From positions 160,001 to 224,000 of IMG/VR virus record IMGVR_UViG_3300032307_000764: a stretch of DNA of 64,000 nucleotides; one strand, given 5' to 3'. This DNA is from a virus (taxonomy: Duplodnaviria; Caudoviricetes). A model generated the notes under the pieces. That model did no database searches, was not told the DNA's origin, and saw only the letters and a program-made list of their open reading frames with translations. This document shows, piece after piece, positions 7,017 to 30,853 of this stretch. Made by a program: the position numbers and the translations under genes. Each line of letters opens with the position of its first letter. The stretch's first letter is position 1.

Positions 7017-7079
7017 ATCATTTTTTTAATTGAAAAGAATTTTCTATATTAGCTAAGTAAACCAATTAAACAAAAAGAG

Positions 7080-7502
7080 ATGGCAACACGATCTAGGATC
7101 GCAATCGAAAAAGAAGACGGTAAAGTAGAATCGATCTACTCTCATTGGGATGGATATCCTGAAGGCAATGGAGCGAAACTTTTCGAACACTACAAAGACC
7201 GTGAAAAAGTTCAAAGCCTAATTGATTTAGGCGACATCAGTTCCTTAGCTCCAGAAGTCGAAGCACCAGAGGGTCACTCATTTAATTCACCAGCAAAAGG
7301 TGTAGTGGTAGCTTACGGAAGGGACAGAGGAGAGAAAAATGTAGGAAAAAGATACCATGCTTCAAAAGATGCTTTTTTTAATTCTGATATTGAAGAATGG
7401 GGATATCTTTTAACCAAGGAAGGCGATTGGGAAGTTAAATCGGCTTACGAAAGAACCAACGGGGTGGAGAAACTCGAAGAAGTCCTGAGTAAATTGGTTT
7501 AG
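7080..7502 (+). CDS. Conserved phage hypothetical protein (HWDGYP family)
   Basis: MATRSRIA...SIYSHWDGYPEGNG motif, seen in many phage early genes. Confidence 0.75.
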   Translation: MATRSRIAIEKEDGKVESIYSHWDGYPEGNGAKLFEHYKDREKVQSLIDLGDISSLAPEVEAPEGHSFNSPAKGVVVAYGRDRGEKNVGKRYHASKDAFFNSDIEEWGYLLTKEGDWEVKSAYERTNGVEKLEEVLSKLV

Positions 7503-7767
7503 TGTTTAATTGGTTGAAACACGGAGAGGGGGCTCAGATCTTAGGATCTGGCCCTCTTTTTTTGTGGGGTTATGTTATGGAATCTAAAACCTCTGTAGGT
7601 GCTATGCCTGGGGAACCTTCGGGGAGTCCGATAATGCTGTTTAATCTTTTCTGAGAAACGTTAAACGAAAAAAATCAAAAAAAAGCTACTAAATTCTAAG
7701 GAATCATTTTTTATATCAAATGGAAGTTTCTATATTAGCTATGTAAACCAATTAAAAATAAAAAAAA

Positions 7768-8151
7768 ATGGCAAGAGACAAAAGCACAATTTCAGGAGGA
7801 TTAGGAATCTCTGAAGAGTTTTTCACAGAAGCACAAAAGATTGTAGCAGAAAACTACAAGAAGTACGACACCATCTCGGATGCTTTGGAAGCGATCGGTG
7901 AGGAAGTTCGAGTTGAGGCTTTGGGTGAATGTAACGAAGCATTATCCGATTACGAACGTAAGCTATTGTTAGCTGGGTTCTTGGGTGGTGCTAAAGGAAC
8001 AGAAAGCAAGCTCAACGGAATCCTAAACGCTATGAAGGTTATGATGGCGTTGGACGGAGCTCCTGAGGAACTCAAAAAAGCTTTGTTCAGCAAGATCTTG
8101 AATGACTTCGGGATTGGCGAAAAAAATGATGACGGGTCTGACGAAGATTAG
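7768..8151 (+). CDS. Hypothetical protein
   Basis: 127-aa ORF with its own promoter and terminator. Confidence 0.75.
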   Translation: MARDKSTISGGLGISEEFFTEAQKIVAENYKKYDTISDALEAIGEEVRVEALGECNEALSDYERKLLLAGFLGGAKGTESKLNGILNAMKVMMALDGAPEELKKALFSKILNDFGIGEKNDDGSDED

Positions 8152-8248
8152 TCTAAGGGGAGCTTAATTGCTCCCCTCTTTTTCTTGGAATCATTTTTTT
8201 ATTCCAATGGATTTTTCTACATTTGTATCAATCAATTAAACACGAAAT

Positions 8249-8596
8249 ATGAACGCATGCACGCACTGCGGTACCTTACACGATAAAAAAGGTATGTACT
8301 GCTCAAAAAAATGCACTGACGCAGCTTATAGAGCTCGTAAGAAAGCAGCTACAGTTGTTACTGAAACATCGACAACTGACCCGGATGAGATCGTCGAAAA
8401 GTTCACCAAAAGGTTTGGTTTCCCTGTTAGGCTATTTTGGAACAAACGCCTAGAAAGAGAAAACTCTTCATGTGCAAAAGCAGGAACCACTTTGGAGTTC
8501 GAACAAATCTCTAAAAAGGGAGGTCGAGTAATTTATCGGGTTCGAAGAGGTAAAAGAAACTTCTTCACATCGGACAAGGAATTATTAGATTCCTAA
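8249..8596 (+). CDS. Zn-finger protein with C-terminal beta domain
   Basis: CxxC...YCSxxC-DAAYR; N-terminus like 11391, C-terminus like 28408. Confidence 0.75.
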   Translation: MNACTHCGTLHDKKGMYCSKKCTDAAYRARKKAATVVTETSTTDPDEIVEKFTKRFGFPVRLFWNKRLERENSSCAKAGTTLEFEQISKKGGRVIYRVRRGKRNFFTSDKELLDS

Positions 8597-8699
8597 TTGA
8601 AATCAAAGTAAATAAAAGGCTCAGGTTACTGGGCCTTTTTTGTGGAATCCTTTTTTTATATCTTAGAAAATTCTTATATTAGCTATCTAATCTATCATC

Positions 8700-8960
8700 A
8701 TGAATAATAAAAAAGTTCTCGAAAGATACCCCACTGCAATAGCTGTAGAATACAGAACCAAATTTGATGTTGGCATCGTAGGTAAAGGTGTGAAATTTTA
8801 CATCATTCAGGAGAGCAAGGATTCTGAGTATGCTTTGGGATTTGCCAGATCAGAGAGAGGTGCATGGCAAATGGCAGAATCATGGTTACAAAATGATATG
8901 TCGATGTTTCCTGATTACAAAGGCTATCCAATAGATCAAGCTAAATTAGAGATGGAATAA
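8700..8960 (+). CDS. Hypothetical protein
   Basis: 86-aa ORF with its own promoter. Confidence 0.7.
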   Translation: MNNKKVLERYPTAIAVEYRTKFDVGIVGKGVKFYIIQESKDSEYALGFARSERGAWQMAESWLQNDMSMFPDYKGYPIDQAKLEME

Positions 8961-9030
8961 TCAGGAAATCCTTTTTTTATCTCTTGGAAAATTCTTATAT
9001 TAGCTAAGTTAACCAATTAAAACATAGGAT

Positions 9031-9480
9031 ATGTCAAAAGAAAGAGAAGAAGCAACTGTTACAATCAAAAAAATGGTAGCAGAATCAGGGAACAAAATTT
9101 TCATGGGAATGACACATCATATTTATGGCCCACTAAGAGGACTCAACTACATTTTAGTAAATCCAAACATTGAGGAAATCCTAGATTGTTTGGACGAACA
9201 AGCTGGAGGTGTTGAACTAGATGACCAGATGAAGATCATCGAGAAAGTTAAAACCGCTGAGCCAAAAACCAATATTGAAACTGCAATTAAGATTTGGACG
9301 AAAACAGGAATGGCAGTTCAACTTATGATTCTTCCTTACGAAATGGTCGAACAAGCTGAGAACGCACCAACAGAAGTTAACTCACTTGAAGAAGGAAGAA
9401 AAGAAATCCTAAAAAATCTTTCATTCACAGCACCCCTGCAAGAAAAAGATCCTTTCTTTTTCCGAACAGGAATAGTTTAA
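9031..9480 (+). CDS. Hypothetical protein
   Basis: 149-aa ORF with promoter and terminator. Confidence 0.75.
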   Translation: MSKEREEATVTIKKMVAESGNKIFMGMTHHIYGPLRGLNYILVNPNIEEILDCLDEQAGGVELDDQMKIIEKVKTAEPKTNIETAIKIWTKTGMAVQLMILPYEMVEQAENAPTEVNSLEEGRKEILKNLSFTAPLQEKDPFFFRTGIV

Positions 9481-9680
9481 ACTCCTATAAACTAGAAGAA
9501 GAAGAAGCCAGAGAAATCTGGCTTTTTTTGTGTGCGGATGTTTTTTCTGCAGCCGCGGATTATTGCCTGAGGAACCCCCTCATGATGGTATCCGGAAATT
9601 ATCCTTTAGATTTTCTTGGAAATCATTTTTTATATTAAGTAGAAGTTTCTATATTTGTATTAACCAATAAAAATAACACC

Positions 9681-10004
9681 ATGAAATACTTCGGAATCGC
9701 AGATGCACACGGAATAGAAAGCTTCATCAAAGGTGACCCGGCTTCTACAGAAAACTCGACTCAAACTATGATGCTTCATATGAGAGCAGGAGCCAATCGA
9801 CATCGACATGCAGTTGTGTATATCGTTGATATTTCTGAAAGCACAGCTCAGGATATTGATGAATTACTCGGCGAAGGAGATTACACTGGAGCTTTAGTAA
9901 GACTAAAAATGTCTGTTGAAGATCTTCAATTAACTAATCTTCCTGGAGCAGAGAAGAGCTGGAGGTTAATACCAAACTCTGATTTGGATCCTTTTAATGG
10001 ATAA
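9681..10004 (+). CDS. Hypothetical protein
   Basis: 107-aa ORF with its own promoter. Confidence 0.75.
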   Translation: MKYFGIADAHGIESFIKGDPASTENSTQTMMLHMRAGANRHRHAVVYIVDISESTAQDIDELLGEGDYTGALVRLKMSVEDLQLTNLPGAEKSWRLIPNSDLDPFNG

Positions 10005-10165
10005 AATATCAGGTTTTTCTGCTGATTATAGAATATTCTAACGTAATTGGATCTAGAATCGTTTTTTATATCGGACATAACACCCTAAATTTGTCATATA
10101 ACTAAAAAGGGAAGATATGAAGAACTTAAGCAGGGAAACACAGCCGAAAGCAAAACCTTACTACT

Positions 10166-10666
10166 ATGGAGTGGCAGGAACAACACGTCCAATCAATCGT
10201 CCGAAGTAATCCAAATCCCGGAACTTCTAGCTACTTCAACGATAATATAACTATGCAGCTAAGAGGAGGAGATTTATACCCTTACATTTTTACTCAAATA
10301 GAAATCGAGAGAGGTAAGGATTACACGGTAGGTGAATTGATTACTAAATTCAGAAATCTTGGTATTGTCATCAAATACGTAGGTAAAACGAAGATGCCAC
10401 CAGGAGATGTCGATTTCTCAATCAGTGAAGAGTTCACATCTGGATTTAGACAAAGGTTTTTAGAAAACGTTCTATTTGAAACCGAAGAAGAAAAAAACAA
10501 CTTTGAATCTATTTTAAAGATTATAGACAAGAAGGTAACAATAGGTCAACATGTATCGATAGATTCAAATGGATTAGAAGATTCATCATCGTATCTAACA
10601 ATTTTCGGATCATATGAAGATTCACATGGTCCGATACAGATATTCGTACTTGAAATACCTTATTAA
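10166..10666 (+). CDS. Hypothetical protein
   Basis: 166-aa ORF; true start may be ATG 10253, with a separate 30-aa ORF at 10117-10209. Confidence 0.65.
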   Translation: MEWQEQHVQSIVRSNPNPGTSSYFNDNITMQLRGGDLYPYIFTQIEIERGKDYTVGELITKFRNLGIVIKYVGKTKMPPGDVDFSISEEFTSGFRQRFLENVLFETEEEKNNFESILKIIDKKVTIGQHVSIDSNGLEDSSSYLTIFGSYEDSHGPIQIFVLEIPY

Positions 10667-10753
10667 CAATTGAATGTTAAAAAAGTTAGAAAATATTTTT
10701 TTAATATAGAAAAAGCGCATACATTTGCAATAACTATTAAACGCATTAGATAA

Positions 10754-10987
10754 ATGACTTGGGAACAGTGTAGGGATTACGGATTAATAAGCATCGAGCC
10801 TGGGAACAATACCGTTCGATTGCATTATAATCAATGGGGAACAAGAATTGCTGAAAAGCCTTTATTCCTTCAAGTTGAGTCCGCTTCTTGGCAAGGTAAC
10901 AATATCATACTAAGAGGATACAATCACTACGGAGAACATCTCGTTTATGTAATGACTGATTTCAATAGCTATCAAAGAATCCTATAA
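10754..10987 (+). CDS. Hypothetical protein
   Basis: 77-aa ORF after a TACATTTG promoter. Confidence 0.7.
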   Translation: MTWEQCRDYGLISIEPGNNTVRLHYNQWGTRIAEKPLFLQVESASWQGNNIILRGYNHYGEHLVYVMTDFNSYQRIL

Positions 10988-11008
10988 TTTTTTAAACACT
11001 CTCAAAAA

Positions 11009-11224
11009 ATGATGAATCGTAAGATCACAGTAACTCTCGATAAAGCAATCAAATTGTATTCGAGTTTAAAATTTGAAGAAAAAGGAATCACCAGCGTAAA
11101 ACCTGGTACAACTGTTACCTTAGAAGAAACCGGAAAGGTTCTTACTAATTCTGAAGGTAAGGATTGCAAAGTCTTGAGACTTCGCAAAAACACTCGTAAT
11201 TATTATACAATAGACGAGATCTAA
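11009..11224 (+). CDS. Small beta-domain protein related to the C-termini of 8249 and 28408
   Basis: IKLYSSLKFE...G...VLRLRKNTRNYYT aligns with VRLYKNLKME...G...VFRVKRTGRRTFYT. Confidence 0.65.
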   Translation: MMNRKITVTLDKAIKLYSSLKFEEKGITSVKPGTTVTLEETGKVLTNSEGKDCKVLRLRKNTRNYYTIDEI

Positions 11225-11390
11225 TTTTTATATCAGGAAACTGCCTTTTCCTGAATTTTTTTACTGTCAAAACCCGAGATTAACCCCTCGGGTTTTTTTG
11301 TGGGTTTTAAATCTGTCTGCTGGAGATATTTTCTGGGGCACCCCATGTAATTTTACCGTATGTTTGCACTATAAAAGATAAACCAGATTT

Positions 11391-11744
11391 ATGAAATGTA
11401 TACAATGCGGAGATGAACACGAGAGGAAAGGAATGTATTGTTCAAAGAGCTGTACTGATAAAGCATATCGTGAGAGAAAGAAAAATAAGATAGACGTTCC
11501 GGAGGAAAAAGGTGAAAAGCTTAAATGGTGTAACTTCTGTGGTGCATCTATAGATGAATCACCAAAGCTAGCCTTCTGTGACGATGACCACGAGAAAGAC
11601 TATTGGAGAACTATCAGAGACGGAGGAACCCTCAAAATAAAGATCGATGCTAGAACAGAGATTCAAACAAAGAAATATTATAGAGTTCAAGATATTATAG
11701 AAGCAATGGTTAACAGAGGTAAGAACGGTGTAACATACTTTTGA
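11391..11744 (+). CDS. Double Zn-finger protein
   Basis: CIQC...YCSKSCTDKAYR and CNFC...FCDDDH. Confidence 0.75.
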   Translation: MKCIQCGDEHERKGMYCSKSCTDKAYRERKKNKIDVPEEKGEKLKWCNFCGASIDESPKLAFCDDDHEKDYWRTIRDGGTLKIKIDARTEIQTKKYYRVQDIIEAMVNRGKNGVTYF

Positions 11745-11783
11745 AACCTTTACTCCGATTTTTCTATAATAAAAAACCAAACT

Positions 11784-11909
11784 ATGAAGAACAGATTCCT
11801 ATGGATACTTGCTATACTTTGTGCAGTATCAATTCTACTAAGCTGTAAAACATCAAAGACAAACTGTGATGCTTACGGTGAGGTTCCTCAGAAGACATCC
11901 CGAGTTTAA
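11784..11909 (+). CDS. 41-aa predicted lipoprotein
   Basis: Manual translation MKNRFLWILAILCAVSILLSCKTSKTNCDAYGEVPQKTSRV; hydrophobic core plus LLSC lipobox. Confidence 0.65.
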   Translation: MKNRFLWILAILCAVSILLSCKTSKTNCDAYGEVPQKTSRV

Positions 11910-11997
11910 AAAACAATTCCATTTTTTTCCAAGAATCATTTTTTCTTTTAAATAGAATTTTCTACATTAGCTATGTAAACCAATTAAAACTAGCAAA

Positions 11998-12264
11998 ATG
12001 TCAGAAAAAGAAAAAAGAGATCAGATATTCAATAAGATCGCAGAACTTGCTAACATGGCAAGTATTCAAGGATTCTTAACCGAGGATACGGAATCAATCT
12101 TAGTTGCTGAATCAATCAAAGTTGTCTTGACTGCTGCTCAAGATGAAAAGCACCTAGAGTTATTACATCAACACATGAGCAACTTCTTAGATGAGGTACA
12201 AGTTTTAATGGGTCAAAGAACTGTAAAAGAGCATTTGCTCGCTAAAGAAAGATGTGTGAATTAA
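11998..12264 (+). CDS. Hypothetical protein
   Basis: 88-aa ORF with its own promoter. Confidence 0.75.
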   Translation: MSEKEKRDQIFNKIAELANMASIQGFLTEDTESILVAESIKVVLTAAQDEKHLELLHQHMSNFLDEVQVLMGQRTVKEHLLAKERCVN

Positions 12265-12334
12265 TTCCAAGAATCCTTTTTTCTTTTAAATAGAATTTTC
12301 TACATTAGCTTCAACCAATTAAAGACTAGAAATC

Positions 12335-12658
12335 ATGAACTGTAACAACTGCGGAACCACAAAAGAATTTAAGTCAGTCCAAACATGCTGCGAAATGACA
12401 GGAGCATTAATCACTATCCAGATGGGATACTGTACCTGTAAAGATGATGACGATGACGACGATGATCTGTCAGGAAGAATGATTGACCATGGTGAAAGAC
12501 CAACGATCACTATTGATCCCACTGATGCAAGCCCGGGATTGCTTCGTAAGGTAGCAGGGCTTAAAAAGCTTCAGAGAGTAGGTAAGGCTATCGGAATCGA
12601 GAACACATTCGAAGTGGAGGTTAAAGAATCTGTTGACTCTAAAAGAAAGGTTATTTAG
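12335..12658 (+). CDS. Cys-rich hypothetical protein with poly-Asp tract
   Basis: CNNC, CC, CTC and DDDDDDDD. Confidence 0.7.
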   Translation: MNCNNCGTTKEFKSVQTCCEMTGALITIQMGYCTCKDDDDDDDDLSGRMIDHGERPTITIDPTDASPGLLRKVAGLKKLQRVGKAIGIENTFEVEVKESVDSKRKVI

Positions 12659-12720
12659 AAAATCATTTTTTTTATTAAGTAGATTTTTCTATATTTGTAA
12701 AGTAACCAATTAAAACTAAC

Positions 12721-14157: not shown

Positions 14158-14459
14158 AGTAACCATGTAAAGGAAAGGAGACTTCGGTCTCCTTTTTTTG
14201 TGGGCTAAGGTTTCTGAAATCAGCAGCCACATCCAAACGCGGGGGTTCCTCAGTCAACCTCCAGGTAGCGTCGGATAGATTTTTTTAGAAAAAACTCAGG
14301 AATCATTTTTTATATTAAAGAGAAATTTCTATCTTTGCATAGTTCCAAAAGAGGGACAAACACCAAACAAAAAAAATCTAGAAAAATCTCAAAAATCATT
14401 TTTTATATTAAAGAGAATTTTCTACTTTAGCTAAGTAAACCAATTAAATATCTATAATT

Positions 14460-15431: not shown

Positions 15432-15556
15432 TTCTCCATCCACAAAAAGAACCCTGGAAATTTCTCCAGGGGTTTTTAGTTTTTTCTTGGAATCATTTTT
15501 TTTATTAAATAGAAATTTCTATATTAGCTAAGTAAACCAATTAAACAAACAAACAA

Positions 15557-17068
15557 ATGAAAAAGACTTTCGGTAACGTATGGAGCTCGGTATCAGGGTG
15601 GGAGAGATCACACTTCGGCGGATTCTCTAGGATGCTATGGGACTACCCATATATCAAAATGGATCTTGATGTTCGTATTGAACCTGGACAAGGTATTAGG
15701 GATTCTCACGGAGCTTACAATGCGGAGAAGCTTGTTAAGATGTATCTATTGAAGGTCAAGGAATTAGGATTAGTAGATCACCTCCGTCAAGAGCGCATCG
15801 AAGAAAAATCTTTCTTTGGTGGTATGAAGAAGTATGACTTACTTCGGTTAGATAATGAAGGTGTTTTCCATAATGTCTTATCAGCAGATAAGGAACTTGC
15901 ACCTCTCTTCGAACACTACCGAGCGGATGTACTAGCTAGCTATATCAAGATGGAAGTTCCTGGAGAGGAGGAAGGAAACAGTAAAGGATCAAAAGGTGAA
16001 GAGGACGAAGAGGGAGAAGGAAAAGGCAATGGTGAAGGAGAGGGAGAAGAGGGAGAAGGTAAAGGCAATGGTGAAGGAGAGGGCGAAGACGAAGGTGAAG
16101 GTGAAGGTCAAGGAAATGGCGACGGTGATGGAGAAGGCGAGGGAGAAGGCGACGGTAAAAGTAACACATCATCCTCTGGAAATTCGGAATCAAATTCTGC
16201 AGGAAATGCGATAAGAGAAGCGGTCAAAGCTATGAGCAAGTACGAGCCATACAAAGGAAAGAACCTTAGTAAGTTCGAAGAGAAAGCTAAGTTCGTTTCT
16301 TTGCCTGCCTCTTTGTCGAAATATAAATACGAATTCACTAGCGAGGAGATCAAGAATTCGGAATTGCTTATCAAGATGTTAGATATCGACTTCGAACCTA
16401 AGGACGATATAGTTAAGAGCTTAAGATTAGGTCGACTTGATACATCTAAGATTGCCGAGGTACCTGCAGGAAATTTGTCCGTGTATCAGCAAGTCTTAGA
16501 GGACCAAGACACTCAGCCATTCTCCGTTTGTATCTTAGCCGATATGTCTGGTAGCATGGGAGGTTATAGAGTTCAAGTACAAAAACAGGTTATGAATTCC
16601 TTATACTTGGCGATGACACAAATCTTACCTGCGGACAAGCTTTATATCTACGGACACTCTGGAGAATACTCACCTGAAATCTTCACCTTCTATAGTCCGT
16701 ATGACACAGACTACGAAAAGAATATTATGTCTTATGAGCGTATCGATCTTTGTCAGAATTACGACGGACCTGTAGTAGAGGAAGTTCACAGAAAGATTAG
16801 AGAGACGAACGAGGACAGAATTATCTTTATCACTTTATCCGACGGCGAACCTTGTGGTAACGGATACGGAAGCCATAACGATATCGTTGACTTAAAAAGA
16901 GTCCTTGAAAGATGCCGAAGAGATAGCTTTGTAACAGTAGGTATCGGTATTCAAAGCTACCATGTTAATAACCTTTACACATACAGTCAAGTCGTTGAGG
17001 ACTTATCTGAAATGTCAAGAGACGTAGCGAACATTATCAACAAAGTAGTTAGAGCCGAATTCAAGTAG
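15557..17068 (+). CDS. vWA-domain protein (CobT-like MoxR partner), copy 2
   Basis: DMSGSM, LSDGEP; paralog of 12721 sharing SVSGWERSHFGGF and the C-terminal INKVVRxEFK. Confidence 0.85.
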   Translation: MKKTFGNVWSSVSGWERSHFGGFSRMLWDYPYIKMDLDVRIEPGQGIRDSHGAYNAEKLVKMYLLKVKELGLVDHLRQERIEEKSFFGGMKKYDLLRLDNEGVFHNVLSADKELAPLFEHYRADVLASYIKMEVPGEEEGNSKGSKGEEDEEGEGKGNGEGEGEEGEGKGNGEGEGEDEGEGEGQGNGDGDGEGEGEGDGKSNTSSSGNSESNSAGNAIREAVKAMSKYEPYKGKNLSKFEEKAKFVSLPASLSKYKYEFTSEEIKNSELLIKMLDIDFEPKDDIVKSLRLGRLDTSKIAEVPAGNLSVYQQVLEDQDTQPFSVCILADMSGSMGGYRVQVQKQVMNSLYLAMTQILPADKLYIYGHSGEYSPEIFTFYSPYDTDYEKNIMSYERIDLCQNYDGPVVEEVHRKIRETNEDRIIFITLSDGEPCGNGYGSHNDIVDLKRVLERCRRDSFVTVGIGIQSYHVNNLYTYSQVVEDLSEMSRDVANIINKVVRAEFK

Positions 17069-17311
17069 GTTGGTTTACACGAATAAAAAAGAGAGGAGAC
17101 TTCGGTCTCCTTTTTTTGTGTGTGGAGGTTTTTTCTGCAGCCGCGGATTATTGACTGAGGAACCCCCGTATATGGGATGAGGTCCTCCAGGAGGGGGCTT
17201 GCGTATACGTGCGTGCGAAGTGGGTTTTTCCAACAAAATCTACCAGAATCCTTTTTTTCTTTGGATAGTTTATTCTATATTAGCTCTATCAATCAATTAA
17301 CACACACAACT

Positions 17312-17449
17312 ATGTCAGAAACCTCAGTAAAACAATGGCTAAACCCACACAATGCAACTGAGCAGGAGATAGCAGAACAGGAGTTATTTGATTCTTTGTT
17401 ATTAGCTAAATATAAGTCCATAGAAGAGCTTAAAGATACCAACGAATAG
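17312..17449 (+). CDS. Small hypothetical protein
   Basis: ATG 17312 after promoter; the longer track start lies in the intergenic repeat. Confidence 0.65.
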   Translation: MSETSVKQWLNPHNATEQEIAEQELFDSLLLAKYKSIEELKDTNE

Positions 17450-17760
17450 ATTGATAGGTTTGCACAACAAAAAGCCCTTACAACTAAATATATGAGTGAA
17501 TCATTACACAATCAACACGGTAAAGAAAGTATAGGTTAGCATTATCATTTGTATTCTTTATAAAGCTTGGAGTTACTCCAGGCTTTTTTTGTTTTAGACC
17601 CTGTCCGATCGCACTACGGACTGCGGATCTGTCCGAGTTGTGGAACCCCCGCAGCAGATCAGGACTGTCCAAAAAATTATTTAGAAAATTCCAAGAATCC
17701 TTTTTTTATTTGTAGAGGATTTCTTATATTAGCTATGTTAATCAATTAAACAAATAAGAT

Positions 17761-18009
17761 ATGCCAGCTTTAAAACCAATTACACATGACGATCTAAAGA
17801 ACCAACTACGTTCAGGATCAGTTAAATTTTACTTCCGCAAAACAGGAGGTGATTTAAGAATCGCTTTAGGAACATTAGACCTAAACCGTATCCCAAATGC
17901 CAACCATCCAAAGGGTGGAAAAATATCGGAAGCACAGGTTGCTTATTACGATTTAGAAAAAGGAGCATGGAGATCGGTTTCAAAAACACAAGAGGTTTGG
18001 ATTGATTAA
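17761..18009 (+). CDS. WYL_2/DUF2693-like SH3 beta-barrel protein, copy 2
   Basis: LRSGSVKFYFRKTGGDLRIALGT...YYDLEKGAWRS; paralog of 5080. Confidence 0.75.
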   Translation: MPALKPITHDDLKNQLRSGSVKFYFRKTGGDLRIALGTLDLNRIPNANHPKGGKISEAQVAYYDLEKGAWRSVSKTQEVWID

Positions 18010-18178
18010 CAAAAATTCGCAAACTAAGGAAAGGAGCTTCGGCTCCTTTTTTTGTGGGCTTAGCTTCCGGTTAGCATATGCTAGACCAAACTGAGGAACC
18101 CCCGTCAATCTTACCAGGAATCATTTTTTTATTTGGATAGAAGTTTCTACATTTGGTGAAACCAATAAAACAAAAGCT

Positions 18179-18709: not shown

Positions 18710-19114
18710 ATGACAACAATATTTTTCTTCCTCTGTTTAGCTTATTTCTTATACGAGATAACCGTATTGACCAACCCTCGAAAAAGCATCGAGAAACTTA
18801 AGAAGCTTAGCAACGCTGAATTCATGAAGAATCCAGATACACCAGCTTCAGAAAAAACCATGAGCTGTTCATTTGCTTTATTTGCAAGCACCTATTTAAT
18901 GTGGAGTTTTATAGGATTGGCTTATTCTTATCAGTGGTTGTCATTTGGTATCTTAATAGTTATAGGTTTTGTACATATGGCTATTGCTAAGCTTTATAAA
19001 AAGACAATACTCTCAACATTCATTGATGCTCTATTATCTTCACTGATTATATTAGACATCTTCGTTCAGCATTACCATCCTGAATTACCAGGATTAATAG
19101 AATCATTATTTTAG
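18710..19114 (+). CDS. Membrane protein, paralog of 53156
   Basis: Four hydrophobic segments; MTTxFF...P...E start shared with 53156. Confidence 0.7.
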   Translation: MTTIFFFLCLAYFLYEITVLTNPRKSIEKLKKLSNAEFMKNPDTPASEKTMSCSFALFASTYLMWSFIGLAYSYQWLSFGILIVIGFVHMAIAKLYKKTILSTFIDALLSSLIILDIFVQHYHPELPGLIESLF

Positions 19115-19284
19115 TTGGTTAAGTTTAGAGAGAGGAGACTTCGGTCTCCTTTTTTTGTGGGCTAAGATTTTCACGTAGCAGTCGCAGGAATTCTGGGGGA
19201 ACCCCAGCAGTTTAACCAGGAATCATTTTTTTGTTTGGATAGAAGTTTCTACATTTGTTGAAAACAATAGAACAAAAGCTATTT

Positions 19285-22099: not shown

Positions 22100-22102
22100 G
22101 GT

Positions 22103-23564: not shown

Positions 23565-23771
23565 ATGCAAGTTCAAACGGAATTATCATTGACACAATTA
23601 GCACAAATAGCTCAGTCGAAATATCCAGATCTATCTGTTATCTGTAATGGATTCTCAGGTACTGTTTATCGAAAAGGTACCCCGGTGTTTAACACAAGCG
23701 GTCCATCTTCTGAGTCAGTGATCTCGGCTTATCTTTCAGGTTTGATTAATGCAGAGCAATTTTTAAAATAA
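23565..23771 (+). CDS. Hypothetical protein
   Basis: 68 aa with its own promoter. Confidence 0.7.
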   Translation: MQVQTELSLTQLAQIAQSKYPDLSVICNGFSGTVYRKGTPVFNTSGPSSESVISAYLSGLINAEQFLK

Positions 23772-23776
23772 GGGAT

Positions 23777-24004
23777 ATGAATGATTTTATTTACGTTCTA
23801 GTTATTTTGGTTTTATTAGCAGTATCTGTTGTACTTGCTGTATCCTTATTTTCAGAACGATGTGATCACCAATGGACTCTAATAAAGAACGCAGATCTTA
23901 TTAAATATAACCGAGAAGGTAAGGAAGTTCCTTATGGTTACCTTAGAGTTCACGAGTGTGAGAAGTGCAAGAAATTGAAAAAGCAACAAGTCGAAATGGA
24001 TTAG
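23777..24004 (+). CDS. Membrane-anchored Zn-ribbon protein
   Basis: N-terminal TM, CDHQW...CEKC. Confidence 0.7.
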   Translation: MNDFIYVLVILVLLAVSVVLAVSLFSERCDHQWTLIKNADLIKYNREGKEVPYGYLRVHECEKCKKLKKQQVEMD

Positions 24005-24006
24005 TT

Positions 24007-24147
24007 ATGAAGTGGACATTTTTTATATTTGGTACAATTGCGACGATTTTAGGAATTGCATTATCGTCTGACACAGAATGTATTGTAGGTGCTGTATTTC
24101 TTTCAGCTTACGCAGTGATCAATGAAATTCAAAAAGTAAAAAAATAA
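24007..24147 (+). CDS. Small two-TM protein
   Basis: MKWTFFIFGTIATILGIALS... Confidence 0.6.
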   Translation: MKWTFFIFGTIATILGIALSSDTECIVGAVFLSAYAVINEIQKVKK

Positions 24148-24152
24148 AAGCC

Positions 24153-24479
24153 ATGGGAGCTACACTAGTTAAGGATATGGAAAGAGTTAACTGTCCAGAT
24201 TGCAGTGCAGCTCCAGGAGAATACCACATGGATGGATGTGACATCGAAAGATGTACTGATTGTGAGGGACAAAGATTATCTTGTAGCTGTCCAGACCACG
24301 GAGATTATCAAAGAGAGAAATGGTCAGGAATAGCTTACGAGAAAGCTAGGTTAATAGCAGAAGAAAATAACCTATATGTTAAATGGAATAAAGGCTGGGT
24401 TAAATGCTCCAAAGATGATGAAGGAGCATCACACGATCTTAATGAAGCTACATTTCTTTTAATGTCTGGCAAAGTTTAG
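24153..24479 (+). CDS. Zn-binding phage protein
   Basis: CPDC..PGEYH..GCDIERC..CEGQRLSCSC motif known from phage early genes. Confidence 0.75.
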   Translation: MGATLVKDMERVNCPDCSAAPGEYHMDGCDIERCTDCEGQRLSCSCPDHGDYQREKWSGIAYEKARLIAEENNLYVKWNKGWVKCSKDDEGASHDLNEATFLLMSGKV

Positions 24480-24741
24480 TTTTGTTTGTTTAGTTTGTTT
24501 GGTTTAGAGAGGGACACAATTGTCCCTCTCTTTTTTTGTGCATTCTTTTTCTGTGTAGCTATGCTGCATCATGAGGAGGTTCCCCACACCTGGATACACC
24601 TGAAAACACCATAAACACCCCGGGGACACCCAGGAGGGGACTTGCGTATACGTGCGTACGTACGAGGGTTTTTATAGGTAATCATTTTTTATAATGTAGA
24701 AAATTCCATATATTTGTAATAACAATCTAAAACACAAACAA

Positions 24742-25023: not shown

Positions 25024-25194
25024 TAAATCCATCAACATAAAAAAAAGGGTCTTCGGACTCTTTTTTTGTGCGCTAAGGTTTTCCTGTAGCAGCCACAAGA
25101 ATTCGGGAGGAACCCCAGCGAACGAATCTTAGAAATCATTTTTTATTTAGTAGAAAAATCTTTATATTTGTATCAACCAATTAAAACAAATATT

Positions 25195-25386: not shown

Positions 25387-25389
25387 GAT

Positions 25390-25611
25390 ATGAAAGCATT
25401 GTTAGGCTTAGTAGGATTGGCAATTGGAATTCTATTAATTGCTGCTTACTGTGAAAGCAAAAAGGATCCTTATGAAGAGGGTATGCACATGGACTATTCT
25501 ATTGAATGTGAGAACGGTTTTGTTTACAAATCTCTAAATCATCGAAGGGGAACAATTCAAGTTCTAAACTCTGATGGAACACCTTTAAGATGTGGAGAGA
25601 AAATACATTAA
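25390..25611 (+). CDS. Membrane-anchored Cys-containing protein
   Basis: N-terminal TM; IECENGFVYK. Confidence 0.7.
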   Translation: MKALLGLVGLAIGILLIAAYCESKKDPYEEGMHMDYSIECENGFVYKSLNHRRGTIQVLNSDGTPLRCGEKIH

Positions 25612-25720
25612 CTCATAAACGGCCAGGTTGGTAGACTGGGGGATATTCAGCGTACTATCCCAAGTCAAGGAATAATGTCTCGCCAGGCATGGAAGGCACC
25701 AAGATATAAACCGATGAGTT
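25610..25720 (+). ncRNA. Candidate structured RNA (multibranch)
   Basis: AACTCAT/ATGAGTT, CGG/CCG, TTGGT/ACCAA, GACT..GGGATA/TATCCC..AGTC and ATGTCT/AGGCAT stems; directly before a terminator. Confidence 0.5.
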
Positions 25721-25901
25721 ATTAATCCCAAGAGCAATCTTGGGATTTTTTGTGGACTAAGGTTTTCACGTAGCAGCCGCAGGAATTCTGGAGGAACCCC
25801 CGGCGAGCTGATCAGACTAAACCTATAGGTTGATTTATAGGAATCATTTTTTTATTTGTAGAAAAATCTATATATTAGCTTAGTAACTAAAAACAAGAAC
25901 A

Positions 25902-26357
25902 ATGAATCACGATTTTATTAAAACAGTAAAAGTTATATCTGTTCAAGATTGGGACAGATTAGTTGAAAAAACCTATGGGAAAACTTATTCTTTTCAGCAA
26001 CAAGATGATTGCAAAGATAGAGGTACAGAGTACATAACAGTTCCGTGTGAACCTGAAGATTATGAAAATGATACTATTCCTGAAATAATTAATGGGGAGG
26101 AAATGGGTGTAAGTTTTAAAAGTTGGTTGGAAAGAGATCCAAAAGCTCTTTTAAACCCTTCCGCTAAAGAACTTGAGGGTTCTGATTATTATTGGGGTAA
26201 TACACCAGCTGATGAAAAAGAGTACAAAGAGAACCCAAGTAATATTAGCTTGTTCTGGGAAAGAAATTTTTATCCTCATGTAAGTATGATTGTTAATGAT
26301 CTACATGCTAAAGGTATTCTTGAAGAAGGTGAGTATGGAATTGAAATTGATTGGTAA
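25902..26357 (+). CDS. Hypothetical protein
   Basis: 151 aa with its own promoter. Confidence 0.75.
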   Translation: MNHDFIKTVKVISVQDWDRLVEKTYGKTYSFQQQDDCKDRGTEYITVPCEPEDYENDTIPEIINGEEMGVSFKSWLERDPKALLNPSAKELEGSDYYWGNTPADEKEYKENPSNISLFWERNFYPHVSMIVNDLHAKGILEEGEYGIEIDW

Positions 26358-26373
26358 TTAAACAACAAGAAAG

Positions 26374-26619
26374 ATGAAAACACCAACAGCAGAAGAGTAC
26401 ATCAAAACAAATCTAACTGATTTTTGGGAAGGGGGTAAAGCACAGTATACAGGAGAAGATGTTGCAAAAGCAATGATTGAGTTCGCCAAGCTCCATGTAG
26501 AAGCTGCAATAAAAGCTTGTATAGAAGATGCACCTTCAGGGTCATCTACTGATACTGTAAGCCAAGAAGATGTTGTAGAAGCATTGAAAGACAGTTATCC
26601 ATTAGAAAACATTAAGTAG
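26374..26619 (+). CDS. Hypothetical protein
   Basis: AMIEFAKLHVEAAIKA...YPLENIK pattern typical of Bacteroidota phage small ORFs. Confidence 0.7.
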   Translation: MKTPTAEEYIKTNLTDFWEGGKAQYTGEDVAKAMIEFAKLHVEAAIKACIEDAPSGSSTDTVSQEDVVEALKDSYPLENIK

Positions 26620-26698
26620 CATGGAAATTCCAAGAATCATTTTTTTCTTTAAGTAGAATTTTCTATATTTGTAATGTTAATCAATTAAACAAAAACAA

Positions 26699-26836
26699 AT
26701 GGCAGAAAAAATCGTTTTAAGAGCATTTCAAGTTTGGTCAGCAACTTTAGGTTTGACAGTAGTATTTGGGATTGGTTTTGCAATCTATAGTTTAATCGTT
26801 GGTAACTATACCAGCACCGCAAGTTTTGAGTTTTAG
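26699..26836 (+). CDS. 45-aa single-TM protein
   Basis: Manual translation MAEKIVLRAFQVWSATLGLTVVFGIGFAIYSLIVGNYTSTASFEF; own promoter and terminator. Confidence 0.65.
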   Translation: MAEKIVLRAFQVWSATLGLTVVFGIGFAIYSLIVGNYTSTASFEF

Positions 26837-27000
26837 TTTTGTTTGTTTTGTTTTGGTTAAAGAGGAACTTCGGTTCCTCTTTTTTTGTGGGCTAACTTTT
26901 TCCTCCCTGCAGGGTAGGAATCTGGAGGAACCCCCGAACCCCGATTCTAGAATCATTTTTTTCTCCAGATTATAATGATTACATTGTAAGAAAAATAATA

Positions 27001-27285
27001 ATGGCCGATTGCTATAACTGTAAGTACAGAGGAGAAATTCCGGGGAGTGCACACTCATGCTGTGAAATCACAAAACATGTTCCTGCATTAAGTAAGGTTA
27101 AATCAGAATTTCTAGATATAGCTCTTATGATAGGGAAAGCTAAAATAAAAGGTAGCGATGGTACCAATGCAGTTAAACTAAATCCTGAAGGTGTTAAAAA
27201 CGGATGGGCTAGTTGGCCTCTAGACTTTGACCCAGTCTGGATAACATCCTGTGAATTATTCAAAGCCAAACCCAAACGTAAATAG
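27001..27285 (+). CDS. Cys-motif hypothetical protein
   Basis: CYNCKYR..PGSAHSCC...GWASWPLDFDPVWITSC. Confidence 0.75.
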   Translation: MADCYNCKYRGEIPGSAHSCCEITKHVPALSKVKSEFLDIALMIGKAKIKGSDGTNAVKLNPEGVKNGWASWPLDFDPVWITSCELFKAKPKRK

Positions 27286-27347
27286 GAATCATTTTTTTCT
27301 TTGTAGAAAATTCTATATATTTGGTATAACCAATTAAACAAAAGGAC

Positions 27348-27578
27348 ATGCCAACTACAGACACTTTTTATGTTTCCTCTAAGGACAACAAAGTAAGAAG
27401 AACCACAGAGCCCGGAAGAGAGTACTTCATCAAAGGAGGAAAGAAAGAAGGACAAGCTAAATACTTAATCGAAGTATTTGGATACGGCCACGAAGAAGTA
27501 GCTAAAGAAGTTAGGGACATGGTTGATAAAGGAGGAATGGACCAAAAATTATTTAGGATCAGAGTAGAGACCAGATAA
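27348..27578 (+). CDS. Hypothetical protein
   Basis: 76 aa with its own promoter. Confidence 0.7.
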   Translation: MPTTDTFYVSSKDNKVRRTTEPGREYFIKGGKKEGQAKYLIEVFGYGHEEVAKEVRDMVDKGGMDQKLFRIRVETR

Positions 27579-27833
27579 AGATATACAAGAATGGAGAAAG
27601 CCTAGAGATAGGTACTTGCTAAAGTGATTAAACCTCGCTTGTATGAAATCCCAAGTTAACTCTTGGGATTTTTTGTGTGCTAAGGTTTTGTGTTAGCACA
27701 TGCTATAAGCACCCGGGGTTCCCCAGGGGAGGGGTTGCGTATACGTGCGTACGTACGAAGGGATTTTCTTGGAATCATTTTTTTCTTTGAAGTAGGATAC
27801 TTATATTTAAGATAACCAATTAAAACAAATAAC

Positions 27834-27989
27834 ATGTACTCTTTAAAATGTGATTACTACACAAAACAATTCTCAACTCTTAATCAACTCCTAGGTGACA
27901 TTGCACTCTCAGGAATGGACCCAAATTATGAGATTACCTTCAATGGTAAAGGAACCGGTGAACTAGCTATTGATCTTATTCAATTTTAA
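27834..27989 (+). CDS. 51-aa hypothetical protein
   Basis: Manual translation; promoter and leader upstream. Confidence 0.65.
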   Translation: MYSLKCDYYTKQFSTLNQLLGDIALSGMDPNYEITFNGKGTGELAIDLIQF

Positions 27990-27992
27990 ACC

Positions 27993-28145
27993 ATGTTCAT
28001 AATACTCTTTATCATCTTATCATTCTTTACCTTGATATCAATAGGAGCAGCTTATGCAATTAAAGAAAGAAAAATGACTATTACAGCAATCATTATATCC
28101 TCAGTCTGGATCCTTTCTTTATATTTAATCTTATATTTGAGGTAA
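27993..28145 (+). CDS. 50-aa two-TM protein
   Basis: Manual translation; two hydrophobic stretches. Confidence 0.55.
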   Translation: MFIILFIILSFFTLISIGAAYAIKERKMTITAIIISSVWILSLYLILYLR

Positions 28146-28407
28146 GCTTTAGTTCATAGAAGCAGTAATAAATTATCACTAAATCCCAAGAGCAATCTTG
28201 GGATTTTTTTTGTGCTGAAGTTTTCTGGTAGCAGCCACAGGAATTCTGGAGGAACCCCCGCTGGAAAACCCCTAAAACCCCTAAAGTCCCTCTCGGAAAA
28301 AAGTTTGAATTATTTCCAAGAAATTCCAAGAATCATTTTTTATATCGAGTAGAAGTTTCTATATTAGCTATGTTAATCAATTAAACAAAACCAAAAAACA
28401 AAACATT

Positions 28408-28722
28408 ATGAAAACTTTAACAGCAGAACAAAAAGCAAAAAAGGCAGCTTATGACAAAGCTTACAGAGCAAAGAAAAAAGCTCAAACTCAAATGGAAGCT
28501 TTCAAAATCCCAAGCGAAGACAAATTCGAAAAAAGCTTTGACTATCCGGTTCGACTTTACAAAAACTTGAAAATGGAGAAAACAAATTCTTACTGTGCAG
28601 CAGCAGGAGCACTCTTAAGCTTTGTTAAAATCAAAAACGAAAACAACCAAATCGTTTTCAGAGTTAAAAGAACTGGTCGCAGAACTTTCTATACAACTTC
28701 AAATGAACTTATCCAAAAATAA
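28408..28722 (+). CDS. Basic protein sharing a C-terminal domain with 8249
   Basis: DKAYRAKKK; FDYPVRLY...FRVKRTGRRTFYT. Confidence 0.75.
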   Translation: MKTLTAEQKAKKAAYDKAYRAKKKAQTQMEAFKIPSEDKFEKSFDYPVRLYKNLKMEKTNSYCAAAGALLSFVKIKNENNQIVFRVKRTGRRTFYTTSNELIQK

Positions 28723-28945
28723 GAGCATCCAAAAAACAAATGAGGAGACTTCGGTCTCCTTTTTTGTGACCTAAGGTTTTGCAAAAGACGTATGCATGTA
28801 AGACGAGGGAACCTCCGAGACTTTAAGCAGCTCTAGCAAAAACTGATACATCTATCAAAAACTGATAATACATAGCTTTACCATAAGCTCCTGAGGAACC
28901 CCAGCCATTTTACTGGAGATCTTACCAGGAGTTTTTGATCCTTTT

Positions 28946-29003
28946 CTATCCTACTTCTACCTCTTTTCTACTCTTCTTCTACAACTCCTCTACTCTTCTT
29001 CTA
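28946..29003 (+). repeat. Six CTA motifs at exact 11-nt phase in a pyrimidine-rich tract
   Basis: CTA at 28946, 28957, 28968, 28979, 28990, 29001. Confidence 0.8.
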
Positions 29004-29100
29004 ATCACCTGAGGAACCCCAGGAACCCTAGCATTTTCTATTTGGGAATCATTTTTTTATTTGTGGAAAATTCTATACATTTATAACAAATAAAACAAAG

Positions 29101-29292
29101 ATGAATAACTACGCTAAACTAGTTTCACCAGACGGAGAAATCGTAGGAGTACTTGAACTTGAGGCAGGAACTTTAAACGAGACCCTCGTTGTTGAAGCAG
29201 CTCTTGAATTGGGTATTAAATTAGAAGCATGCACTGAGGAAGAGTACAACAATTTTGATGGTGATGAAATCAAACCAAGTTGGATGGAATAA
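29101..29292 (+). CDS. Small acidic protein
   Basis: 63 aa with its own promoter. Confidence 0.7.
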   Translation: MNNYAKLVSPDGEIVGVLELEAGTLNETLVVEAALELGIKLEACTEEEYNNFDGDEIKPSWME

Positions 29293-29363
29293 TTTCAAAA
29301 ATCATTTTTTATCTTCAGTAGATTTTTCTATATTAGCTAGGTTAATCAATATAACCACTCAAC

Positions 29364-29540
29364 ATGAAACAGGTACTTAAAGTCTTAGCATTTCCATTCA
29401 TCTTGTTATGGAGCTTATGTCAATCATTGCTAGAAATCCTTGAAGCATTATTCGCAAAGCCATTTGTGTTTCGCATGGGAAAGAACAGCATAGAAATCGG
29501 GATCGTGCCCCTGGTACTAATCATCTGGTTAATCTGCTAG
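29364..29540 (+). CDS. 58-aa hydrophobic protein
   Basis: Manual translation; its promoter is identical to the one at 29553. Confidence 0.55.
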   Translation: MKQVLKVLAFPFILLWSLCQSLLEILEALFAKPFVFRMGKNSIEIGIVPLVLIIWLIC

Positions 29541-29617
29541 AAAATTTACTAAAATCATTTTTTATCTTCAGTAGATTTTTCTATATTAGCTAAGTAATCA
29601 ATTAAACACAAATACAT

Positions 29618-30007
29618 ATGCGAATCTTAATTTTATCAGTGTTACTAATGGTAATTACCAGCTTCACCACAGTAACACTAGCTGCTATCCCTAGCAGCCA
29701 AGGCCTGGTTACCGATACAGTGTTAAAGAAGTATTCATACTTAGACACTTCAAAGGTAATCAACACTGAACAGCTCAAGATTGACCCAAGGTGGGTTCAA
29801 GGGCTATCTAATATTTCAAATTACAAACCCATCCTACATATTGACCCTGGCAGCCAGGACACGGTTTCTAATTATACTTTAGCTCGAATCACAGAACCAA
29901 TATTACACATCGACCCTGGCAATCAGGAATTTGGTTCTCTATACAACTATAATTCATTAGCTATTTTTAAGGAACCTGTACTACACATTGACCCCGGTCG
30001 TGATTAA
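29618..30007 (+). CDS. Secreted protein with three P(I/V)LHIDPG repeats
   Basis: Signal peptide MRILILSVLLMVITSFTTVTLAA; repeats differ at synonymous sites. Confidence 0.75.
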   Translation: MRILILSVLLMVITSFTTVTLAAIPSSQGLVTDTVLKKYSYLDTSKVINTEQLKIDPRWVQGLSNISNYKPILHIDPGSQDTVSNYTLARITEPILHIDPGNQEFGSLYNYNSLAIFKEPVLHIDPGRD

Positions 30008-30202
30008 GAAATAAAAAAAAAGAAAAGACTCTTCGGAGTCTTTTTTTGTGGCCCAAGGGTTTAAGGCAAATAAGGCAAACAAGGAAGTGCTCCTGAGGAA
30101 CCCCCGTACATCTTCCATCAATCATTTTTTTATTTAGAGAAAAATCCATACATTTATACTAGCCAATTAAAAATATTATTACCTTTACCTAAACAAAAAG
30201 AC

Positions 30203-30379
30203 ATGAAAGTAAAAATAGGAGAAAAGATTTACGATTCAGAAAAAGAACCTATTATGGTGATATTATCAGATGCAGACAAAAAAAATATTCACAATATGTT
30301 ACCAACAGCAACAAAATATTGTAGTTTTCCTGATGAAATCCCAACAGAAGATATAAAAGAATTTATGAAGACCACATAA
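30203..30379 (+). CDS. 58-aa hypothetical protein
   Basis: Manual translation MKVKIGEKIYDSEKEPIMVIL... Confidence 0.65.
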   Translation: MKVKIGEKIYDSEKEPIMVILSDADKKNIHNMLPTATKYCSFPDEIPTEDIKEFMKTT

Positions 30380-30388
30380 TCATAATAC

Positions 30389-30488
30389 AGTCAGGTGGTG
30401 TAATTGGTAACACGGGGTTCGAGTCCCCAATCTTCTCGAAGGGAAGATAAAGGCTGGCAAGATACAGGTTCGAGCCCTGTCCTGACTA
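30389..30488 (+). tRNA. Atypical ~100-nt tRNA-like gene (nominal anticodon CGA, Ser-like; no encoded CCA)
   Basis: 7-bp acceptor AGTCAGG/CCTGACT, D-arm GTGT-AATTGGTA-ACAC, T-arm ACAGG-TTCGAGC-CCTGT; GGGG-TTCGAGT-CCCC at the anticodon position plus a 35-nt extra region. Confidence 0.65.
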
Positions 30489-30553
30489 CAAAATCATTTT
30501 TTTAATTGGAAGTAATTCCTTACATTTATACTAACCAATTAAAACAAAACAAA

Positions 30554-30709
30554 ATGAAAACACACAAATTAGTTTACCCACTAGCTTACACTTCACTCTT
30601 CACATTAGTAATAGGAGCAATCCTAATGGTAGGAGGAAATCACATAGGAGATTATATGGTTGCAGGAGGTGCAATCGTAGCAACATTACTCATGCACAAA
30701 TTAGATTGA
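30554..30709 (+). CDS. Small two-TM protein
   Basis: ATG 30554 after promoter and leader. Confidence 0.65.
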   Translation: MKTHKLVYPLAYTSLFTLVIGAILMVGGNHIGDYMVAGGAIVATLLMHKLD

Positions 30710-30853
30710 GTTTGATTGGTTAACACATACAACTCAAATCAGAAAGACCAGCTTCCTCCAGCTGGTCTTTTTTTGTGGACCTTTGACAAATCTTTAAGAA
30801 GACAACTGGAACTTAGCAGGAACCCCCGATATATAAGAGATAACAACAACATT

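Follow-up and report, generated by a model that had tools for sequence, protein, structure and literature searches.

In Staphylococcus aureus, a 3′ untranslated region (3′ UTR) motif of the icaR mRNA obstructs initiation and creates a substrate for RNase III (Ruiz de los Mozos 2013), and in Bacillus subtilis a 14-nucleotide (nt) contact between the 5′ UTR and the 3′ UTR of the hbs mRNA protects the 5′ end (Braun 2017; both reviewed in PMC7821165). Sequences that suggest a related arrangement recur in the DNA analyzed here, a 64,000-nt stretch (the window) taken from a 248-kb IMG/VR virus record of a freshwater jumbo phage. Several predicted early mRNAs encoded in this window carry, just ahead of their terminators, a short sequence that is complementary to the leader at the 5′ end of the phage's early messages, and which we call the anti-leader. 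A first-pass annotation of the window had noticed some of these matches and had proposed that these transcripts are closed by pairing of their two ends, every trailer being tuned to the leader variant of its own gene. The complementarity is borne out by our analysis, but the gene-specific tuning is not. The best explanation, to which we assign a probability of roughly 0.5 on the basis of sequence comparison and folding models, is that a generic, G·U-degenerate anti-leader acts as an RNA brake or shut-off on early translation via the shared leader, either in cis or in trans.

The early region lies between positions 3000 and 33000, where ~60 small + strand genes are arranged as a cassette array and one repeated promoter-leader module precedes ~44 of them. 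Each module consists of ATCATTTTTTT, ~15 nt, TTCTATATT(AG or TG), 4-7 nt, AAYCAATTAAAC, an A/C-rich spacer, and ATG. Both TATATTTG and TATATTAG conform to TAnnTTTG, the −7 box of Bacteroidota sigmaA, which is located at −12 to −5 in Flavobacterium psychrophilum (PMC9723704). Because the box spans these positions, the predicted +1 is cassette position 41, the fifth base past G, and the predicted RNA 5′ ends are GUWAAYCAAUUAAAC or AACCAAUUAAAC. From the Bacteroidota-type promoter cassettes, we infer that the transcripts are early mRNAs. Units end with a hairpin plus TTTTTTTGTG terminator, of which ~28 were counted in this region, followed by a conserved junction element of ~50 nt and then by the next cassette. 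Part of the leader, AAUUAAAC, partly matches the universal 16S word GUUUAAUU, which we take to be coincidental.

All matches quoted in the first-pass annotation are present in the sequence. The leader of gene 7080 (7060-7072) matches its trailer (7503-7515) at 13/13 positions, that of gene 17761 (17736-17746) matches 18001-18011 at 11/11, and that of gene 30554 (30532-30543) matches 30711-30722 with one G·U pair. Gene 15557 pairs GTAAACCAA (15532-15540) with TTGGTTTAC (17070-17078), and gene 26699 is followed by a (TTTG)n..TTGGTTAA run at 26837-26860. Two of the proposed matches overlap coding sequence: that of gene 17761 consists mostly of the W-I-D-stop codons, and a second anti-leader proposed for gene 7080 (7492-7501) does exist, but it is coding sequence and is not retained in relatives (GAATTGGCT). 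We found four further cases, at 17450-17457, where ATTGATAG pairs with its own leader CTATCAAT, at 19115-19128, at 24480-24507, which is a (TTTG)n..TTTGGTTTAG run, and at 32326-32341, which is GGTTGATTGATTAACA. The earlier wording of "several" rather than "all" mRNAs is correct, because ~16 other terminated units lack an anti-leader. Some trailers also hold a TAnnTTTG-like word, read from the sequences as the word alone.

Pairing with the consensus leader was scored by sliding RNAduplex along the + strand of 3000-33500 (30.5 kb), with energies at or below −12 kcal/mol considered strong. Only six clusters reach this threshold, and five of the six start at a stop codon directly 5′ of a terminator, in trailers that constitute 2.9% of the sequence (binomial p = 1.2e-7). 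At the family level, trailer energies are bimodal, such that most fall between −1 and −7 kcal/mol while 7-8 of 28 fall between −12 and −18 kcal/mol; approximately a quarter of the terminated early units carry an anti-leader. Scanning metagenomes with the cassette word yielded a set of 120 loci with 365 unique trailers upstream of terminators, and 55 of these trailers pair at −12 kcal/mol or better. This threshold is reached by 3/365 shuffled trailers, by 13/365 trailers when the partner is read backwards, and by 0/360 segments comprising the 40 nt just downstream of terminators. These counts put the complementarity far beyond chance, and we regard it as real and selected.

The cassette is common to three related virus contigs. 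One of these (G001) has ~80% nt identity to the window and is syntenic with it, and another (G002) has ~70% nt identity, a shuffled gene order, and seven anti-leader trailers. The third (G003) was not counted as independent because it is 99.97% identical to G002. A looser cassette pattern run over viral contigs gave mostly chance single matches, and only one contig (G004), which ends at the start of the early region, was gained. In addition, the complete 348-kb genome of a distant phage (G005) combines TAACCAAY leaders with an upstream promoter element of another kind, and it carries five TTGGTTA-type anti-leader trailers after TAG stops, the trailer type fitting its own leaders. A lineage-level comparison of TTGATT-type trailers (8/16 versus 0/5, Fisher p = 0.11) is only suggestive.

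Ortholog families were defined by BLAST of the coding sequence alone, and because of this, family membership is independent of pairing. In the gene 7080 family, TAGTGTTTAATTGGTT is invariant while the protein falls to 74% and 45% amino acid identity. In the gene 17761 family, members whose terminator directly follows the gene carry the anti-leader in two unrelated forms, one being ATTGATTAACA, which is built from the last codons, and the other a separate GTTTGRTTGGTTA past the stop. The exception is a terminator-adjacent group (metagenome loci L168 and L152) that has a degraded GTTGATTAGG only. Orthologs that have another gene next carry no anti-leader. In the gene 15557 family, the element is kept in relatives with at least 79% nt identity and is absent from more distant orthologs.

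These results can be weighed against the possibility that the element has no function of its own, and that a G/T-rich pre-terminator composition or some hitch-hiking sequence merely happens to complement an A/C-rich leader. The leaders are of low complexity, some trailers are simple (TTTG)n runs, the element is found in a minority of units only, and it is lost from the more distant gene 15557 orthologs. However, such an origin is difficult to reconcile with bimodal energies, with the scarcity of strong pairing among shuffled trailers, and with trailers that match the complement of the non-repetitive core AAYCAATTAAAC exactly over 13-16 nt. It likewise does not predict an element that is invariant at 45% protein identity, nor one that arose independently within one gene family and whose occurrence is tied to the presence of a terminator. 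We therefore regard a functionless origin as unlikely.

Folding of whole predicted transcripts (185-1587 nt) by partition function places a leader-trailer helix of 9-17 bp in the minimum free energy structure and in the ensemble for 7/7 modeled window units. End-to-end pairing of the genes listed by the first-pass annotation is thus thermodynamically predicted, and cis closure is plausible in the window on these models. Among 11 control units without an anti-leader, 1.8-7.9 of ~23 leader nt are paired. When 3′ fragments are folded in isolation, the anti-leader is single-stranded or looped and lies 5′ of the terminator hairpin. For gene 7080, AATTGGTTG is in the loop of a GTGTTT/AAACAC hairpin (AAUUGGUUG in a 6-bp hairpin at 7502-7522), and G002 is able to form a stem at this site too, with a different 3′ arm.

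Predicted cis helices in all seven window units would also be expected if the model proposed earlier is taken strictly, such that every transcript is closed by a trailer that co-evolved with its own leader variant and that acts only in cis and only on its own gene. Some trailers do rank their own leader near the top, including those of genes 17761 (1-3 of 44), 17312 (1), and 15557 (3-6) and of G002 unit 2316 (1 of 48), and it is generally understood that pairing in cis is kinetically favored over pairing in trans. Overall, however, self pairs score like random leader/trailer pairs, which is an outcome that the first-pass annotation itself had named as refuting its idea. For 15 trailers from the window and G002, the best own-unit leader was compared with equal-size random leader sets, giving a Fisher combined p of 0.36 and a mean p of 0.51. 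For 46 unique metagenome trailers, the own nearest leader stands at mean percentile 0.45 of 523 unique leaders, and at 0.49 against a matched pool. Nor do the four orthologous pairs compared between the window and G001, its closest relative, covary, since they are identical in both and without compensatory changes.

Moreover, the anti-leader persists where its own cassette offers no suitable partner. The gene 7080 ortholog in G002 and in locus L149 has a leaderless cassette, with its ATG a few nt past the −7 box, and yet TAGTGTTTAATTGGTT is kept; in L210, the leader lacks the core and the trailer is again kept. Many TTGATTAACA-type trailers (TTGATT), including whole families of TTGATTGATTAACA trailers, belong to units with AACCAA leaders, which creates a C·A mismatch. 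Several trailers, such as GTTTGATTGGTTAACA at 30710, can be considered "universal" because their G residues pair with the C or U of any leader variant, and for five trailers the median duplex energies computed in silico against all 44 leaders are −11 to −15 kcal/mol. Because own leaders have no advantage over other leaders and the anti-leader is kept even where its unit has no compatible leader, selection does not appear to maintain pairing with the own leader in cis, and we consider the strict gene-specific model improbable. What these comparisons leave standing is action in trans, or a universal cis element that survives cassette shuffling. We have folded the latter, as a weaker cis model that is not gene-specific, into our best explanation.

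As a separate observation, relatives contain leaderless cassettes in which the ATG lies 4-6 nt past the −7 box (TTCTATATTTGAGATATGGCA), as at 4725-4767 of locus L019 (G002) and in loci L149, L151, L223, and L225. Some early genes there are consequently expected to be made from leaderless or near-leaderless mRNAs.

The anti-leader is preferentially joined to one stop codon. TAG is used in 6/9 anti-leader units versus 2/16 other terminated units (Fisher p = 0.0099), and this preference is most simply explained by pairing of the UAG G residue with the C of AAAC, which lets the helix begin at the stop codon. It might instead be speculated that TTGATTGATTAA is a translational safety device that provides stops in all three frames as a back-up behind UAG, and that its likeness to an anti-leader is secondary. 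Indeed, T-TGA-T-TGA-T-TAA holds a stop in each frame, an A/G change at TAA or TGA preserves a stop, and TAG is enriched in anti-leader units, although the pairing with AAAC accounts for this enrichment too. However, about half of the trailers contain TTGGTT, where TGG is not a stop, and the (TTTG)n class is free of stops, and for these reasons a stop cluster is not the main explanation. Stops also do not demand a 13/13 or 16-bp leader complement that ends at the transcription start site. We judge such a role to be doubtful.

The first-pass annotation had also pointed out that, at the DNA level, the matches are inverted repeats flanking the gene. The pattern of substitutions speaks for RNA. When the two kinds of transition are scored equally, G replaces the expected A at 42/180 trailer sites (23%) and C replaces the expected T at 9/304 (3%; Fisher p = 3.5e-12). 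At two positions where the leader has U, C is found in 1% and 6% of 377 unique leaders, whereas 27% and 59% of the trailers carry G opposite these positions. Because G is common opposite the leader U and the matching C is rare in leaders, the trailers are G·U-degenerate complements rather than inverted DNA copies. The boundary is informative as well. After G[AG]TTAAC, A is found in 22/24 cases, facing cassette position 40, and the base following that A agrees with an inverted DNA copy in 1/24, which places the end of the complementarity within 1 nt of the predicted +1. Furthermore, anti-leaders are confined to the transcript, and none occurs in the longer spacer past the terminator (0/360). 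The complementarity between leader and trailer is therefore best read at the RNA level, as judged from the sequences. A transition-blind motif scan of all loci was abandoned as too noisy, having caught the near-palindromic leader, UP elements, and mis-oriented loci.

A DNA-level element, whether a reversed protein site from the promoter +1 region or inverted repeats that recombination of mobile cassettes leaves behind or exploits, would find some support in the partly palindromic leader (TGTTAA..TTAACA), in the PeSL-like cassette array, and in the recombination between repeats documented in T4-type phages (PMC2839356). However, the trailer consensus departs from the leader reverse complement exactly at the wobble positions, the complementarity halts at the predicted +1 without ever reaching the −7 box, the elements are located only 5′ of terminators and never in the larger spacers downstream, and PeSL recombination requires direct rather than inverted repeats. 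Together, these features disfavor the DNA-level reading, which we think has only a slim chance of being correct. Translational insulation, in which a trailer pairs with the next downstream leader on read-through RNA, is a weak candidate, given a percentile of 0.35 against the matched pool among non-independent orthologs, and we did not adopt it.

Our preferred reading, the RNA brake, might operate as follows. The early region is an array of cassettes, each consisting of a promoter-leader, one or more small genes, and a terminator, and nearly all early mRNAs are predicted to share their first ~16 nt, (U)GUWAAYCAAUUAAAC. In about a quarter of the terminated units, a generic anti-leader, either GUUURAUUGRUUAAC(A) or a (UUUG)n..UUGGUU run, begins with the stop codon, for which UAG is preferred, and directly precedes the terminator hairpin. 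It is predicted to pair as RNA with the shared leader from the 5′-terminal nt down to ~9 nt before the AUG. This pairing would form in cis in units whose own leader fits. It would probably form in trans as well, with the anti-leader either still attached to its mRNA or released as a stable 3′ fragment. Such a duplex might occlude the unstructured A-rich initiation region required by Bacteroidota ribosomes and might open the way to RNase III-type cleavage. Initiation in Flavobacterium relies on unstructured upstream sequence (PMC6847099), and because of this requirement the expected effect is lower initiation and possibly decay directed by double-stranded RNA. The outcome would be a built-in brake on, or shut-off of, early-gene translation. 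The sequences and folding models show the position, enrichment, and conservation of the element, its G·U-tolerant substitutions, the end of the complementarity at the predicted +1, and the predicted helices; pairing in the cell, its division between cis and trans, and its effect on translation or decay are what we infer from these patterns.

Several points weigh against this reading. The duplexes are short and AU/GU-rich (−12 to −23 kcal/mol). Only ~25% of units carry the element, and the genes concerned have no common property that we found; Pfam and PHROGs searches identified a vWA/CobT-like domain and a WYL_2 Sm-like barrel, while the remaining products were unknowns and no shared theme emerged. 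In ~40% of anti-leader trailers, pairing with the nearest own leader is weak (above −9 kcal/mol); because of this, a mechanism acting only in cis fails, and action in trans is an assumption. The asymmetry between A/G and T/C changes could stem in part from a composition rich in G+T or from a need to keep TAA/TGA stops in other frames. Lastly, the metagenome sequences are related to each other, and the p values obtained with them overstate independence.

An extension of the RNA brake that we offer only tentatively is a regulon-wide antisense network. Perhaps the wobble-"universal" 3′ anti-leaders accumulate with early transcription and titrate the leader of ~40 mRNAs in trans, which would make early shut-off self-timed.

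Coordinates of the window features discussed above are collected in the table.

Table. Cassettes, anti-leaders, and terminator of the early region, in window coordinates
Feature	Position	Strand	Remarks
Promoter + leader cassette, gene 7080	7017..7079	+	ATCATTTTTTT..TTCTATATTAG..GTAAACCAATTAAACAAAAAGAG; one of ~44 copies
Anti-leader TAG then TGTTTAATTGGTT, after gene 7080	7500..7515	+	13/13 to AACCAATTAAACA
Intrinsic terminator hairpin + T-run	7525..7563	+	closes the 6234/6723/7080 unit
Cassette + leader, gene 15557	15492..15556	+	GTAAACCAATTAAACAAACAAACAA
Anti-leader TAG then GTTGGTTTAC	17066..17078	+	pairs with GUAAACCAA, whose start is the predicted +1
Cassette + leader, 45-aa gene 17312	17248..17311	+	CTCTATCAATCAATTAAC
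TAG then ATTGATAGG	17447..17458	+	complement of own leader CTATCAAT; weak case, 8-9 bp
Cassette + leader, gene 17761	17697..17760	+	TGTTAATCAATTAAAC type
Anti-leader GGATTGATTAACA	17998..18011	+	overlaps W-I-D-stop codons of gene 17761
Anti-leader TAG then TTGGTTAAGTTTAG, gene 18710	19112..19128	+	poor pairing with own unit's leaders
G/T-rich anti-leader TAG then TTTTGTTTGTTTAGTTTGTTTGGTTTAG	24477..24507	+	ends the 23565-24479 operon
Anti-leader TAG then TTTTGTTTGTTTTGTTTTGGTTAA	26834..26860	+	after 45-aa gene 26699
"Universal" anti-leader TGA then GTTTGATTGGTTAACA	30707..30725	+	16 bp with TGTTAATCAATTAAAC (two G·U); 13 bp with TAACCAATTAAAC (one G·U)
Anti-leader GGTTGATTGA then TTAACA	32326..32341	+	spans stop of gene 32072; own leader without matching core

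Other features of the region deserve mention. The ~50-nt junction element, TTTTTTGTGNGC..GGTTTT..GCAGCCGCNGGAWTNNTG(A/G)GGAACCCC, lies directly 3′ of most terminators and has ~20 copies in the window, including those at 6100-6150, 9530-9585, 17118-17170, 18055-18110, 19158-19215, and 25070-25125 and ~15 more; it is found in G001, G002, and metagenome loci as well. At 7560-7700, an unusually long non-coding spacer past the 7557 terminator has a GC-rich hairpin (CCTGGGGAACCTTCGGGGAGTCCG) instead of the usual junction element. A 378-nt intergenic stretch between the 28760 terminator and the 29048 cassette (28780-29050) has direct repeats, namely CTCTTCTTCTAC.., two CTGAGGAACCCCAG boxes, and AAAAACTGATA twice. 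An orphan promoter cassette (ATCATTTTTTATATTAAAGAGAAATTTCTATCTTTGCATAG...) at 14290-14395 precedes ~60 nt of A/C-rich sequence that lacks an open reading frame, beyond which lies the normal cassette of gene 14460; this orphan may yield a short non-coding transcript. A tRNA-like stretch (GGTGGTGTAATTGGTAACACGGGGTTCGAGTCCCC...) lies within an early unit at 30389-30488; ARAGORN, run over the window, called no tRNA, there or elsewhere. Rfam gave 0 matches at the gathering score over 3000-33500, and no GenBank phage matched when 12 kb were compared by megablast. The 82-aa product of gene 17761 (17761-18009) matches Pfam WYL_2 (PF10902), an Sm-like SH3 beta-barrel, with an E value of 2.7e-15. This small protein from an anti-leader-bearing unit has a fold that may bind nucleic acids.

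If the RNA brake operates as proposed, it would bear on how large Bacteroidota phages time and limit early expression. A short portable RNA element would then serve as a simple post-transcriptional timer that travels with mobile gene cassettes, and it would offer a compact design rule for synthetic Bacteroidota expression cassettes. It would also extend the 5′/3′ UTR pairing known for single bacterial genes to a whole regulon. As with icaR and hbs, a short 3′ UTR motif is complementary to the initiation or 5′ region of the same mRNA, as is the case for seven window units but not for all anti-leader units of relatives. Unlike those single genes, each with a private motif (an anti-Shine-Dalgarno UCCCC in icaR), the phage anti-leader is generic, occurs in many unrelated units, and targets the leader of ~40 genes without being matched to its own gene, which is to say that the private, co-evolving partners of icaR and hbs have no equivalent here. 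Furthermore, the host phylum is free of Shine-Dalgarno sites, and the pairing in the phage is predicted.

The phage trailers also resemble the small RNAs derived from 3′ UTRs (such as CpxQ, SroC, and SdhX; PMC7821165) in their succession of stop codon, conserved single-stranded seed, terminator hairpin, and U-tail. In the folded 3′ fragments, the seed immediately precedes the intrinsic terminator of the mRNA. The seed is more conserved than its surroundings, and it has many potential trans targets, complementary sites being present in other mRNAs in silico. Unlike in those systems, the Bacteroidota lack Hfq, pairing would be directed at early leaders of the phage itself instead of host mRNAs, and the processed fragment is hypothetical.

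The early region itself is organized like the PeSL cassettes of T4-type phages, in which repeated modules of a terminator and a strong early promoter flank small variable early genes (Arbiol 2010, PMC2839356; Comeau 2014, PMC4122927). Here, too, a composite of a stem-loop terminator and a strong early promoter is repeated between small variable genes, and, as in PeSL arrays, gene order is shuffled between relatives (G002). As to recombination between cassettes, such differences in synteny are what the comparison shows. The abstracts of PMC2839356 and PMC4122927 present PeSLs as promoter plus terminator and do not mention a leader-complementary element. The array in this phage further differs in that its promoter is of the Bacteroidota type and in that an extra conserved junction element follows the terminator.

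Phage T4 turns down its early messages with proteins: RegA is a translational repressor of many early mRNAs, and RegB is an endoribonuclease that cuts their Shine-Dalgarno sequences. The anti-leader would be like RegA and RegB by functional analogy only, as a phage-encoded means of turning down a class of early messages via their initiation regions, and unlike these proteins it would act by RNA-RNA pairing. Because Bacteroidota hosts lack Shine-Dalgarno initiation, the T4 solutions of cutting such sites with RegB or binding them with RegA are not simply transferable. If the tentative antisense network operates, it would be an RNA counterpart of RegA and RegB in a phylum without Shine-Dalgarno sites, one that is apparently widespread in freshwater Flavobacterium-type jumbo phages.

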